Below are positions 2,263-6,154 of a DNA stretch of 6,321 bases, piece by piece. Under the pieces are notes generated by a model. The model worked only from the letters and a program-made list of their open reading frames with translations. It ran no database searches and was not told the origin of the DNA. A program made the translations under genes and the position numbers. Every line of letters begins with the position of its first letter. Positions within the stretch are counted from its first letter, which is position 1. The stretch lies in the IMG/VR virus record IMGVR_UViG_2681813201_000017; one strand, 5' to 3'. Origin of the DNA: a virus (taxonomy: Duplodnaviria > Heunggongvirae > Uroviricota > Caudoviricetes).

Positions 2263-2317
2263 ACGATCCCATTATGCCGCGAGTCAATGGTAGCTCAGGC
2301 GGGGCAGCCTCCGGGCT

Positions 2318-2345
2318 GGCCGGTATTCTTCGAGGCCGGTATTCT
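2318..2345 (+). repeat. Tandem direct repeat GGCCGGTATTCT x2 (2318-2329 and 2334-2345) in the leader of the rightward operon
   Basis: Two perfect 12-nt copies 16 nt apart, separated by tcga. Position corresponds to the immunity region of P4-type elements, where short sequences pair with the CI antisense RNA; assignment is inference. Confidence 0.35.
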
Positions 2346-2358
2346 CACCCCCGTCTGG

Positions 2359-2400
2359 GCTATCGCCATCGAGCGTGAGAACTCCGGCGATAGCAGTTAT
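2359..2400 (+). promoter_or_regulatory. Hairpin (9-bp stem, 18-nt loop) followed by a U-rich stretch; candidate attenuator or terminator upstream of the first rightward ORF
   Basis: gctatcgcc (2359-2367) pairs with ggcgatagc (2386-2394); followed by cagttatttgct. It sits immediately before the AAGGAGG RBS at 2411-2417. Confidence 0.3.
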
Positions 2401-2622: not shown

Positions 2623-2902
2623 TAAAAAAGCCCCTCAGACCGTCTCAGCGCGTCATGACGCCCGTGAACACCTCAGCATTGAGGCTTACCATAAGCTCAA
2701 CCGCGCCAGCGCCGTATCCCAGTTTGTTGGGGGTGATTTGATTCACCGTGAACTCTCCGGCCTGCATCAGCTCTACATTCCGCATATTTTCAGCTACCTG
2801 AATGAAGATATTGATTTTGTGCTGAATGAACTGAAAGCCAAAGGCCTGTGCCGCGATTTTCTCGCCCAGCAGAAAGACCGGGGAGACAGGACGCATGTTT
2901 GA
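2615..2902 (+). CDS. 95-aa protein at the position of P4 Epsilon (helper prophage derepression); start at GTG
   Basis: GTG 2615 preceded by GGAGG (2604-2608, 6-nt spacing). The longer ORF-track version (from 2375) has an N-terminal part that overlaps the 65-aa ORF in another frame and lacks an RBS. Stop TGA 2900-2902 overlaps the ATG of the next ORF. Size and synteny fit Epsilon; I cannot verify the sequence. Confidence 0.5.
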
Positions 2903-3350
2903 TTTTCCCCAGCCCGGTGAGATTTACCGTTCTGCCGGTTTTCCCGATGTGGCCGTGGTCGGCATTCTGGAAGACGGTATTCCGTGGGAAATGCCGTACC
3001 GCTGCCCGGAAATTGTCTGGAACCCGTACCGCCGTAAATTCAGTATCCTTGTGCGTATCCTCGCTGACGGACGCACCACAGACATCCCGCTGGGGCGTTT
3101 TCTGCGGGAATTTACCTGTGACCGTCCTGACCTGTTTAAACGCAGCCCCGTAAACCGGCATGCGGTACTGAAAGAAATGGCCGGAGACCCGGAATTACAG
3201 AAATGGCGGGAAAAATATCTGGATATTTACCCGCAGGACACTGTTCCGGTCAGCCGGGCAGCACCGGTGGCGCGGGAATGGCGGGAAATTCCCCGCACGG
3301 AGCCTGACCCGGAAACCACCCCGGATAACAGTTACCGCAATTATCTGTAA
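2895..3350 (+). CDS. 151-aa hypothetical protein (size and position of P4 orf151), function unknown
   Basis: ATG 2895 with GGAG 2882-2885 upstream; start overlaps the stop of the preceding ORF (ATGTTTGA); uninterrupted 151 codons in a compactly packed operon. Confidence 0.7.
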   Translation: MFDFPQPGEIYRSAGFPDVAVVGILEDGIPWEMPYRCPEIVWNPYRRKFSILVRILADGRTTDIPLGRFLREFTCDRPDLFKRSPVNRHAVLKEMAGDPELQKWREKYLDIYPQDTVPVSRAAPVAREWREIPRTEPDPETTPDNSYRNYL

Positions 3351-3378
3351 TTAAAAAACGACCCCCGAAAAATTAAAT

Positions 3379-3404
3379 GTGCGTATTCGCGCAGGGATAC
3401 GCAC
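3379..3404. promoter_or_regulatory. Inverted repeat / hairpin in the intergenic region between the 151-aa and 106-aa ORFs
   Basis: gtgcgtat (3379-3386) pairs with atacgcac (3397-3404), 8-bp stem and 10-nt loop. There is no T-run on the + strand; on the - strand it is followed by atttaatttttcggggg, so as a terminator it is oriented against the operon. Confidence 0.35.
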
Positions 3405-3423
3405 GTCTTCAGGAGACGCAGAT

Positions 3424-3489
3424 ATGCCTTATCAGTTAATGCAACCGGCACGGAATGCAGTCATCTGTCACAGGGAGAAAAGCAAATGA
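3424..3489 (+). CDS. Candidate 21-codon upstream ORF / leader peptide ([21 protein letters not shown]) coupled to the 106-aa ORF
   Basis: ATG 3424 preceded by AGGAG (3411-3415, 8-nt spacing); stop TGA 3487-3489 overlaps the ATG 3486-3488 of the next ORF (ATGA). Confidence 0.25.
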
Positions 3490-3806
3490 AAACACCCTTA
3501 CCGCCCGTCTTACGCGCTGCCCTTTACCGTCGCGCTGTCGCCTGTGCCTGGCTGACCGTGTGCGAACGTCAGCACCGCTACCCGCATCTCACCCTTGAGT
3601 CACTGGAGGCGGCCATCGCCGCTGAGCTGGAAGGCTTTTATCTGCGCCAGCACGGTGAGGAAAAAGGGCGTCAGATAGCCTGTGCCCTGCTGGAAGATTT
3701 AATGGAATCCGGCCCCCTGAAGGCCGCGCCGTCGCTGTCCTTTCTCGGGCTGGTTGTGATGGATGAACTCTGTGCCCGTCACATAAAAGCGCCGGTACTG
3801 CACTGA
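3486..3806 (+). CDS. 106-aa hypothetical protein immediately upstream of alpha, function unknown
   Basis: ATG 3486 with GGGAGA upstream; ends 14 nt before the alpha start; same strand and compact operon arrangement. Confidence 0.65.
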
Positions 3807-3820
3807 AGGAGAACAACACC

Positions 3821-6154
3821 ATGAAAATGAACGTAACCGCCACCGTCAGCCATGCGCTCGGCCACTGGCCGCGTATTCTCCCGGCGCTGGGGATTCAGGT
3901 GCTGAAAAACCGTCATCAGCCCTGTCCGGTCTGTGGCGGGAGTGACCGCTTCCGTTTTGATGACAGGGAGGGGCGCGGCACCTGGTACTGCAATCAGTGT
4001 GGTGCCGGTGACGGCCTGAAACTGGTTGAAAAGGTGTTTGGTGTTTCCCCGTCCGACGCGGCCGCAAAGGTGGCTGCCGTGACCGGCAGCCTGCCCACGG
4101 CTGACCCGGCAGTGACGGCCGCCGCCGGCGCTGAAACAGACGCTGCCCGGAAGAACGCCGCCGCACTGGCACAAACCCTGATGGCAAAAACCCGTCCCGG
4201 AACCGGTAACGCCTACCTGACCCGCAAGGGCTTTCCCGGCCGGGAATGCCGGATGCTGACCGGCACACACAGAGCCGGTGGCGTGAGCTGGCGCGCCGGT
4301 GACCTTGTGGTGCCACTGTATGACGACAGCGGCGAACTGGTTAACCTTCAGTTAATCAGTGCTGACGGCCGTAAGCGCACCCTGAAAGGCGGACAGGTCA
4401 GGGGCACCTGTCACACCCTTGAAGGACAGAATCAGGCCGGAAAACGTCTGTGGATAGCGGAGGGATACGCGACCGCACTTACCGTACATCACCTGACCGG
4501 TGAAACGGTGATGGTGGCGCTTTCTTCCGTGAACCTCCTTTCTCTGGCCAGCCTTGCCCGGCAGAAGCATCCGGCCTGTCAGATTGTCCTTGCCGCAGAC
4601 CGTGACCTCAGCGGTGACGGCCAGAAAAAAGCCGCCGCAGCCGCAGATGCGTGTGAGGGCGTTGTTGCCCTGCCGCCGGTCTTCGGTGACTGGAATGATG
4701 CCTTCACGCAGTACGGCGGGGAGGCCACCCGTAAGGCCATTTATGATGCCATCCGGCCACCGGCTGAAAGCCCGTTCGATACCATGAGCGAAGCGGAGTT
4801 TTCCGCCATGAGTACCAGCGAAAAGGCCATGCGTATCTATGAGCATTACGGCGAGGCGCTCGCGGTCGATGCCAACGGCCAGCTTCTGTCCCGCTATGAA
4901 AATGGTGTCTGGAAGGTGCTGCCGCCACAGGACTTTGCCCGGGATGTGGCCGGGCTGTTTCAGCGTCTGCGCGCGCCGTTCTCCTCCGGGAAGGTGGCCT
5001 CCGTGGTGGACACCCTGAAGCTGATTATTCCGCAGCAGGAAGCCCCCTCCCGCCGCCTGATTGGCTTTCGTAACGGCGTGCTCGACACGCAGAACGGCAC
5101 GTTCCACCCGCACAGTCCGTCACACTGGATGCGCACCCTGTGCGATGTGGATTTCACCCCGCCGGTGGACGGTGAAACGCTGGAGACCCACGCCCCCGCG
5201 TTCTGGCGCTGGCTTGACCGTGCCGCCGGTGGCCGTGCGGAAAAACGCGACGTGATTCTGGCCGCACTGTTTATGGTGCTGGCAAACCGCTACGACTGGC
5301 AGCTCTTTCTGGAGGTGACCGGTCCCGGCGGCAGCGGCAAAAGTATCATGGCCGAAATAGCCACCCTGCTGGCCGGGGAGGATAACGCCACGTCGGCCAC
5401 CATCGAGACGCTGGAATCCCCGCGTGAACGTGCCGCGTTAACTGGCTTCTCACTGATACGCCTGCCGGACCAGGAAAAATGGAGCGGCGACGGAGCCGGA
5501 CTCAAGGCCATCACCGGCGGCGATGCGGTGTCCGTTGACCCGAAATACCGGGATGCGTACTCCACGCATATCCCGGCGGTGATTCTGGCCGTGAACAATA
5601 ACCCGATGCGCTTCACCGACCGCAGCGGCGGCGTGTCACGCCGGCGGGTGATTATTCACTTCCCGGAACAGATAGCCCCGCAGGAGCGCGACCCGCAGCT
5701 TAAGGACAAAATCACCCGCGAGCTGGCGGTCATCGTGCGTCACCTGATGCAGAAGTTCAGCGACCCGATGCTCGCCCGGTCACTGCTTCAGTCCCAGCAG
5801 AACTCAGACGAGGCACTGAACATCAAACGGGATGCCGACCCGACGTTTGATTTTATCGGCTATCTGGAAACCCTGCCGCAGACCAGCGGCATGTATATGG
5901 GGAACGCCAGTATCATCCCGCGTAATTACCGTAAATACCTCTATCACGCCTATCTGGCCTACATGGAGGCAAACGGCTACCGGAATGTACTCAGTCTGAA
6001 AATGTTCGGGCTGGGGCTGCCGGTGATGCTGAAGGAATACGGACTGAATTACGAGAAGCGCCATACCAAACAGGGGATACAGACCAACCTGACGCTGAAA
6101 GAGGAAAGCTACGGCGACTGGCTGCCAAAATGTGACGACCCTGCAACAGCCTGA
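3821..6154 (+). CDS. alpha: Alpha, bifunctional DNA primase-helicase and origin-binding replication protein of P4-type satellites, 777 aa
   Basis: 777-aa ORF with AAGGAG RBS (3806-3811). N-terminal zinc-ribbon CPVCGG...CNQCG (nt 3923-4000), primase motif EGYATA (nt 4460-4477), Walker A GPGGSGKS (nt 5321-5344). N-terminus MKMNVTATVSHALGHWPRILPALG matches my recollection of P4 Alpha. Confidence 0.95.
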   Translation: MKMNVTATVSHALGHWPRILPALGIQVLKNRHQPCPVCGGSDRFRFDDREGRGTWYCNQCGAGDGLKLVEKVFGVSPSDAAAKVAAVTGSLPTADPAVTAAAGAETDAARKNAAALAQTLMAKTRPGTGNAYLTRKGFPGRECRMLTGTHRAGGVSWRAGDLVVPLYDDSGELVNLQLISADGRKRTLKGGQVRGTCHTLEGQNQAGKRLWIAEGYATALTVHHLTGETVMVALSSVNLLSLASLARQKHPACQIVLAADRDLSGDGQKKAAAAADACEGVVALPPVFGDWNDAFTQYGGEATRKAIYDAIRPPAESPFDTMSEAEFSAMSTSEKAMRIYEHYGEALAVDANGQLLSRYENGVWKVLPPQDFARDVAGLFQRLRAPFSSGKVASVVDTLKLIIPQQEAPSRRLIGFRNGVLDTQNGTFHPHSPSHWMRTLCDVDFTPPVDGETLETHAPAFWRWLDRAAGGRAEKRDVILAALFMVLANRYDWQLFLEVTGPGGSGKSIMAEIATLLAGEDNATSATIETLESPRERAALTGFSLIRLPDQEKWSGDGAGLKAITGGDAVSVDPKYRDAYSTHIPAVILAVNNNPMRFTDRSGGVSRRRVIIHFPEQIAPQERDPQLKDKITRELAVIVRHLMQKFSDPMLARSLLQSQQNSDEALNIKRDADPTFDFIGYLETLPQTSGMYMGNASIIPRNYRKYLYHAYLAYMEANGYRNVLSLKMFGLGLPVMLKEYGLNYEKRHTKQGIQTNLTLKEESYGDWLPKCDDPATA

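Follow-up and report, generated by a model that had tools for sequence, protein, structure and literature searches.

A 21-codon reading frame in front of the cnr gene of satellite phage P4, probably the vestige of a conserved small gene

The 6,321-nt stretch analysed here (hereafter the window; IMG/VR record IMGVR_UViG_2681813201_000017) corresponds to the satellite phage P4 (X51522/NC_001609), with 98.8% identity by megablast. Between orf151 and cnr, the gene for the P4 negative regulator of replication and plasmid copy number, it carries a 21-codon open reading frame (ORF) that is preceded by a stem-loop and a Shine-Dalgarno (SD) sequence and whose stop codon overlaps the cnr start. This ORF, which we call the stub, is probably the vestige of a small gene of the phrog_10110 family that is conserved directly upstream of cnr in most P4-like elements, and it would have inherited its coupling arrangement at cnr from that gene. 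Since positions 3351-3500 of the window are base-for-base the same as P4 X51522, what is found at this junction holds for P4 itself.

The small ORF in front of cnr and its relatives

The original prediction, made from the letters of the stretch, placed an 8-bp hairpin, an SD sequence and a 21-codon ORF in a gap of 135 nt between the 151-aa and 106-aa ORFs, that is, orf151 and cnr. The gap and all its elements are present: the inverted repeat GTGCGTAT/ATACGCAC at 3379-3386 and 3397-3404, AGGAG at 3411-3415 followed 8 nt later by the ATG at 3424, and a TGA (3487-3489) that overlaps the cnr ATG (3486-3488) as ATGA. An ORF of at least 21 codons, starting at an SD-preceded ATG and ending on the ATGA, arose in 0.6% of 20,000 shuffles of the 135-nt gap, so the arrangement exceeds chance. 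The prediction had missed that cnr also has an SD sequence of its own, GGGAG (3473-3477), 8 nt from its ATG, which record X05623 marks as a potential ribosome-binding site (RBS). In the window and in P4, position 3478 has the minor allele A in place of the G found in 175 of 181 relatives, so that the cnr SD reads GGGAGA rather than GGGAGG and codon 19 of the stub is altered (K/E); a G/A difference at 3482 (S20N) is a common polymorphism, seen in 71 of the 181. The small ORF is unannotated in X02534, X05623, X51522 and the RefSeq Escherichia coli genomes, and no description of it was found in the records or in the accessible literature, outside which lie the classical papers on P4 transcription and cnr. 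The prediction had known of no such arrangement in P4, and this stands for the stub; the dyad symmetry (window 3375-3409) was already annotated in the 1980s P4 record X02534, together with a '-10 consensus' (3346-3351).

We scanned one genome per bacterial species with Cnr alignments and retrieved 79 loci, from genera that include Enterobacter, Citrobacter, Klebsiella, Kluyvera, Pantoea, Serratia and Edwardsiella. In about 73 of the 79, tblastn detected a gene of 74-86 aa that ends exactly at the cnr start, and in 68 of 75 loci, all from other Enterobacterales, the cnr start is overlapped, as ATGA, by the stop of a gene at least 70 codons long. The intact upstream gene belongs to phrog_10110, a family of unknown function (matches of 1e-29 to 1e-46), and scans with Pfam and NCBIfam profiles yielded no function for its 86-aa version or for orf151. 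It is evidently the same as the 75-aa family between epsilon and alpha that was reported in 61% of P4-like elements and called absent from P4 (de Sousa & Rocha 2021, PMC8628076).

Homologues of orf151, with 45-74% amino acid identity, occur in many Enterobacterales, and the elements that carry one have an 86-87-aa version of the small gene. In these elements, the orf151 stop is followed by a fixed module, consisting of an A-rich spacer, a stem-loop of the form GTGCGTAT-N10-ATACGCAC, GTCYTC, AGGAGAC, 5-6 nt and an ATG. It was kept in every sampled orf151-bearing relative with the 86-aa gene (loci L004, L124, L126, L132, L134, L137, L141, L145, L146, L376, L379 and L383-385). Because the module is conserved in front of the 86-aa gene, the hairpin, SD and ATG seen in P4 represent the initiation region of that gene, and because the overlap is conserved in the relatives, the ATGA represents its junction with cnr. 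E. coli elements without orf151 (L007, 1277-1504; L008, 1250-1474) have a 74-75-aa gene that also overlaps the stop of the preceding gene; they form an unbroken chain of overlapping cistrons, and the hairpin is absent. Judging from these sequences, the hairpin module is specific to the 3' flank of orf151.

The P4 gap can be aligned to the two ends of the 86-aa gene. In a MAFFT alignment with L004, it matches both ends of the gene, with about 195 nt absent between them, and blastn between the L004 region and E. coli P4-type loci extends 33 nt into the gene, to codon 11. Nucleotides 4-33 of the stub are in register with the 86-aa gene and identical at 18 of 30 positions (p ~1e-4), an anchored alignment with the 86-aa gene of the Salmonella allele L385 reached z = 4.1 (0 of 1,000 shuffles were as good), and the last ~17 nt (GGGAG...ATGA) are common to both. 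The size is that expected from a net in-frame loss of 65 codons (86 - 65 = 21). The stub thus shares with the phrog_10110 gene of P4-like satellites its site directly upstream of cnr and the ATGA overlap and, with that of the orf151-bearing sublineage, the hairpin/AGGAG/ATG module and in-register codons 1-11 and last codons. It differs from this gene in its length of 21 codons, its lack of purifying selection and the lack of the conserved core DLECLEHLRNVGQ...LDGVV.RC, which is wholly absent. With the core missing, we rejected full membership of the family: the stub would be a remnant, not a member. Pfam gave no match for the 21-aa product, and no PHROGs scan was made on it. A junction drawn by eye at AAT/AAT, in frame, may represent the deletion, as one possibility among others, and the middle ~40 nt are not confidently assigned.

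To sample the junction more widely, metagenomes were scanned with a pattern of the hairpin 3' arm and SD, which yielded 120 loci, and more were added through look-ups of Orf151 homologues. At least four allele types follow the module in orf151-bearing elements. In allele A, an intact 86-87-aa gene ends in ATGA on cnr. In allele B (L143, 2450-2520; L232; L386, 1650-1760; L387), cnr itself begins at the module ATG; the 86-aa gene is precisely absent, and the Cnr N-terminus reads MPVQL or MADQL, as opposed to the usual MK(T/Q)PL. These loci come from a Scandinavium metagenome-assembled genome, Citrobacter koseri and a metagenome contig. Allele C (L278; L296, 1918-2100; L382, 1046-1192) is a 24-codon stub, MLYKQN(N/K)DAINHNNPCSLTGE(E/V)NI and a stop, with a C-terminal LTGE shortly before the stop and the ATGA kept; its peptide, MLYKQNNDAINHNNPCSLTGEENI, retains the N-terminal QN..AI as well as the C-terminal LTGE of the 86-aa gene. 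Allele D is the P4 stub of 21 codons, found in 181 loci. The sequence AGGAG(A/T)C-N5/6-ATG is common to all four and, whichever the allele, a ribosome starting at the conserved ATG would either make Cnr or stop exactly on the cnr AUG. P4 is roughly equidistant from representatives of A, B and C, with nucleotide identities of 72-79% in orf151 and 78-85% in cnr. The P4-type gap is present in about 918 of 5,426 complete E. coli genomes, and the full arrangement of orf151 and the 86-aa gene in only 16.

Two loci depart from these types. In the metagenome contig JGI20225J20221_1000029 (L179), unrelated sequence, probably an insertion, breaks the 86-aa gene after ~5 codons and leaves an 11-codon ORF. 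In E. coli 2013C-4538 (L005; NZ_CP027582, ~1447-1520; also H59-H61), an IS66-family element, ISCro1, interrupts the hairpin in its 5' arm; the stub, cnr and alpha remain, but orf151 and all sequence upstream of it are gone.

Translation into the cnr start

The stub peptide is not under selection. Across the 181 P4-type loci, the stub has 12 distinct substitutions, 1 synonymous and 11 nonsynonymous, with the ATG>ATA of L010 among the latter; the same loci give counts of 35:49 in orf151, 24:12 in cnr and 58:65 over the initial 600 nt of alpha. The comparison of synonymous with nonsynonymous changes, by which the original prediction had proposed to assess conservation of the 21-codon frame, therefore reveals no purifying selection on it, as opposed to cnr. 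The initiation signals of the stub, SD and ATG, are unaltered in 180 of the 181 loci, and no indel was found in it, indels being few anywhere in these loci. The three C-type stubs differ from one another by 3 nonsynonymous and 1 synonymous changes. As to conservation of the frame, the outcome is mixed: relatives keep an ORF that spans the conserved ATG and the ATGA, but not its length, which is 21, 24 or 86-87 codons; in some the ORF is absent altogether, and the start is lost in one of the 181 P4-type loci. In two metagenome/Logan contigs, L217 and L381, poly-C runs and scattered indels accompany apparent frameshifts or stop loss in the stub and cnr; we read these as assembly or long-read errors and excluded them as biological variants. 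The TGA>TGC change in L217 that figures among the stub events sits in such a probable poly-C artefact.

The junction has the features of a translationally coupled gene pair, namely the stop/start overlap (ATGA, 3486-3489) and an upstream initiation region, AGGAG 8 nt before the ATG, that is conserved in alleles A-D. Our proposal for P4 is as follows. P4 would have lost the core of the small gene, some 65 codons, by a net in-frame deletion, and would have retained the module, about the first 11 codons, the last codons with the cnr SD, and the stop/start overlap. The AGGAG-N8-AUG site immediately 3' of the stem-loop would still serve for initiation, and ribosomes would read the stub as far as the UGA that overlaps the AUG of cnr, which would permit termination-reinitiation. 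Such translation could keep the cnr initiation region translated and unfolded and block upstream ribosomes from passing over the cnr start in a different frame. The peptide would be functionless, and cnr would also be able to initiate from its own SD. The vestige probably still delivers ribosomes to the cnr start, and we infer that the stub is translated and that its translation matters for cnr.

The original prediction saw here a translationally coupled leader peptide or attenuator. Its coupling half is plausible, as an inherited feature, the ATGA being present in 68 of 75 loci; since the coupling is inherited from the 86-aa gene, the stub is not a purpose-built leader peptide or attenuator. 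The arrangement resembles that of coupled overlapping cistrons of many phages and of ribosomal-protein operons, with a 4-nt overlap, an upstream ORF with a strong SD and the downstream SD embedded within it. It departs from them in that the upstream cistron is, in P4, a 21-codon vestige whose product is unselected and in that the cnr SD is accessible. The boundaries shared by two dissimilar stubs and by the fused alleles (allele B) are suggestive of selection preserving translation into the cnr start, although the independent events are few.

Several points weigh against this account. On the side of ancestry, the stub interior (~43 nt) gave nothing significant in free local alignments with the 86-aa gene and with cnr genes, and the start of the stub is similar to the fused cnr alleles as well, matching their 5' end at 14 of its first 16 nt (anchored z ~3). 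On the side of function, the start codon is lost in one natural locus, L010 (ATG>ATA); the P4-type loci lie within ~3% of each other, so their polymorphism is too low to test whether the frame is maintained, and the argument for maintenance is based on just two stub alleles. Moreover, the SD that belongs to cnr is a good one and lies free of stable sequestering structure in a fold of the 180-nt junction, so coupling may be dispensable.

The resemblance to the fused alleles raises another origin for the 5' part of the stub, from a cnr allele of the L143/L232/L386 type instead of the 86-aa N-terminus, the gap being then a partial duplication of cnr produced by recombination between alleles. The 14 matching positions of 16 are those between ATGCCTTATCAGTTAA in the stub and ATGCCTGTTCAGTTAA in L232/L386, a further segment of the stub, GCAGTCATCTGTCACAGG, is like cnr codons 17-22 (13/18), and anchored alignments of the stub to fused cnr gave z = 2.8-3.2. 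However, the 5' end of the 86-aa gene aligns at least equally well (z = 3.3-4.1) and with fewer gaps, and the blastn homology between L004 and P4 runs through codon 11 of that gene. The fused alleles themselves start with the first codons of the 86-aa gene, so the shared start is uninformative about where the stub came from, and we regard a fused-cnr origin as improbable. A less unlikely alternative, though still one we doubt, accepts the ancestry and denies the function: the stub would be a decaying pseudogene fragment that is not usefully translated, cnr would be expressed from its own SD only, and the frame ending on ATGA would be a historical accident. Its pN/pS of ~2.5, the lost start codon of L010 and the cnr SD, GGGAG(G) at 8-nt spacing and without sequestering structure, all fit such an inert relic; a 20-codon frame is open by chance in ~29% of shuffles, and a single deletion has a 1-in-3 prior of leaving the frame intact. 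Yet AGGAG-N8-ATG is a strong initiation signal that has stayed intact in all but one P4-type locus, the 21- and 24-codon stubs have little peptide in common and nevertheless both span exactly the distance from the conserved ATG to the ATGA, and the fused alleles place cnr on the same module ATG. In addition, the alternative frame (ORF 3455-3598) would read more than 100 nt (~110) past the cnr start, so the choice of frame is unlikely to be neutral for cnr.

The stem-loop of the gap

The repeat GTGCGTAT/ATACGCAC is the sole inverted repeat of at least 7 nt in 3300-3560. As RNA, the stem extends to 12 bp, with a predicted energy of -17.5 kcal/mol (z = -4.4), a stability matched by 0 of 200 shuffles. 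No other segment of the gap is so little polymorphic: the hairpin shows one G-C to G.U change and one 1-nt deletion among the P4-type loci, and it is present in all orf151-bearing relatives sampled, even at 65-79% orf151 nucleotide identity. The conservation is at the sequence level: 4 pairs show compatible one-sided changes and 0 of 12 pairs changed on both sides, a covariation result that is uninformative about the helix. In L141 and L146, pairing at the top of the stem is disrupted. The gene orf151 contains a third exact copy of GTGCGTAT (3051-3058), a number of copies not above chance.

The leader or attenuator half of the original prediction would have translation of the 21 codons control a terminator, and hence transcription of cnr and alpha. 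In its favour are the presence of a short, SD-equipped ORF and a hairpin in one gap and a P4 precedent, given below; the rest of the evidence runs against it. The hairpin is located upstream of the ORF, 4 nt away from its SD, and not downstream, and the stem is followed by CUUCAGGAG, with no U-tract; a stem without a U-run on the transcribed (+) strand is not an intrinsic terminator. The 180-nt junction folds no better than its shuffles (z = 0.29) and offers no competing pairings, on which grounds attenuator-like alternative structures were rejected, and the stub contains no regulatory codon run. The ORF, furthermore, is 21, 24 or 86 codons long or absent while the hairpin stays the same. We consider a purpose-built attenuator highly improbable. 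A scan of 2800-3900 detected no promoter-like site and no terminator-like site on the + strand, and the simple reading of an internal cnr promoter or an intrinsic terminator was rejected accordingly. An Rfam scan of the whole window (E<=1) returned only the CI/C4 RNA at 2283-2370 and none in the gap.

P4 reportedly has a precedent for translation acting on termination, in that translation of kil/eta upstream of the Rho-dependent terminator timm is said to affect termination there. This site, at X51522 8365-8209 (PMC3177188), corresponds to window ~2425-2581, away from the stub. The stub resembles trp-type attenuators and timm in being a short ORF in a leader or intercistronic region whose translation could shield RNA from Rho; it differs in lacking terminator/antiterminator alternatives and a U-tract, and in that its hairpin precedes the ORF.

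Two further readings concern the repeat itself. It might act mainly as a signal for RNA 3'-end formation or processing, by which the left operon would be divided into a part through orf151 and a cnr-alpha replication part, the stub being incidental; this is compatible with the vestige reading. The signal could take the form of a barrier to 3' exonucleases, or of a hairpin that protects the 5' end left by RNase E cleavage in the AU-rich spacer before it. The low polymorphism of the hairpin and its presence in every orf151-bearing lineage sampled favour such a role, as do the position of the stem directly after an A/U-rich single-stranded spacer and that of its 3' end, ~1.3 kb downstream of a '-10 consensus' at X02534 2367-2372 (P4 coordinates). 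Weighing the other way are the missing U-tract, which excludes a canonical intrinsic terminator, the lack of compensatory changes in all 12 pairs and the disrupted stem top of L141 and L146; we take this as a possibility worth keeping, though not a probable one. RNAs of 1.3 and 4.1 kb are reportedly made from PLE, and of 1.7 and 4.5 kb from PLL, 400 nt upstream. If these sizes hold, the stem-loop is a good candidate for the place where the short RNAs end or are processed. In general terms it is comparable to the 3' barriers of the REP/malEFG type and the 5' hairpins of the ompA type, as a stable, conserved intercistronic stem-loop after an AU-rich tract; it differs in being unrelated in sequence to REP elements and in matching no Rfam family.

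Alternatively, the repeat would work as DNA and not as an RNA structure, as an operator bound by a dimeric protein encoded by the element. Its two 8-bp arms match perfectly across a 10-bp spacer, and its loop, GC(G/A)CAGG, is as conserved as the arms, with no covariation. But the half-site is not enriched in the window (7 matches, against 4.0 +/- 2.1 expected), no promoter-like site was found nearby in the 2800-3900 scan, and the site is internal to a polycistronic operon, with an SD 4 nt away, all of which makes an operator very unlikely. On the minus strand, from 3377 to 3351, the stem is followed by the T-rich TTTAATTTTT and looks like an intrinsic terminator that faces cnr and alpha. This T-run is not conserved in L141 or L146, and we know of no minus-strand gene or promoter upstream of it.

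A broader proposal, which we put forward as speculation and would not expect to hold in full, treats the module as a conserved cassette that serves expression of the replication-control genes in P4-like satellites. Selection would keep any ORF that runs from its ATG to the cnr AUG, or cnr itself at that place, and ribosome traffic would set the level of Cnr or shield the cnr-alpha transcript from Rho or RNase. The stub would then be a sequence-independent coupler, and the stem-loop would bound the 1.3/1.7-kb RNAs.

Gene map of the window and meaning for P4-like elements

The features of the junction and its neighbouring genes are collected in Table 1.

Table 1. Features at and around the orf151-cnr junction (window coordinates)
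Feature	Position	Strand	Remarks
orf151	2895..3350	+	phrog_10748, function unknown; spacer/hairpin module always on its 3' flank
A-rich spacer	3351..3376	+	After the orf151 stop; varies among relatives; most polymorphic part of the gap
Stem-loop	3377..3406	+	12-bp RNA stem, core GTGCGTAT/ATACGCAC, loop GCGCAG
Stub SD, AGGAG	3411..3415	+	8 nt before the ATG; probably the RBS of the ancestral 86-aa gene
21-codon stub ORF	3424..3489	+	Probable remnant of the phrog_10110 86-aa gene: codons 1-11 and last few codons
cnr SD, GGGAG	3473..3477	+	Inside the 3' end of the stub, as in the intact 86-aa gene
cnr (orf106)	3486..3806	+	DUF5375, PF17345, E = 3e-63; ATG overlaps the stub TGA as ATGA
alpha	3821-6154		Downstream of cnr

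Elsewhere, the window contains a run of ~75 N (2188-2262) that replaces 865 nt of P4 (L003, 2188-3052); the P4 sequence behind it includes ori type 1/2 repeats, ORF88/vis and the early/late promoter region. An apparent deletion of 784 nt relative to P4 was rejected on this account, the N run being a masking or assembly gap and not biology. The Rfam match at 2283-2370 (+) is to the C4 antisense RNA (RF01695; 74.3 bits, E = 1e-13), the known P4 CI immunity RNA.

A vestige at a four-allele junction is a small new detail on a classical model, and a truncated upstream cistron with an ATGA overlap is of an ordinary kind; no new regulatory principle or mechanism is revealed by the stub. The conserved stem-loop/SD module fronts whatever follows orf151 in all sampled relatives, and the orf151-cnr junction, where at least four types of allele occur, is a hot spot of evolution. 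P4, the reference satellite phage, is atypical of its family at the cnr locus, which calls for caution. It does not simply lack the widespread cnr-adjacent gene, but would have kept a 21-codon vestige of it, complete with RBS and overlap.

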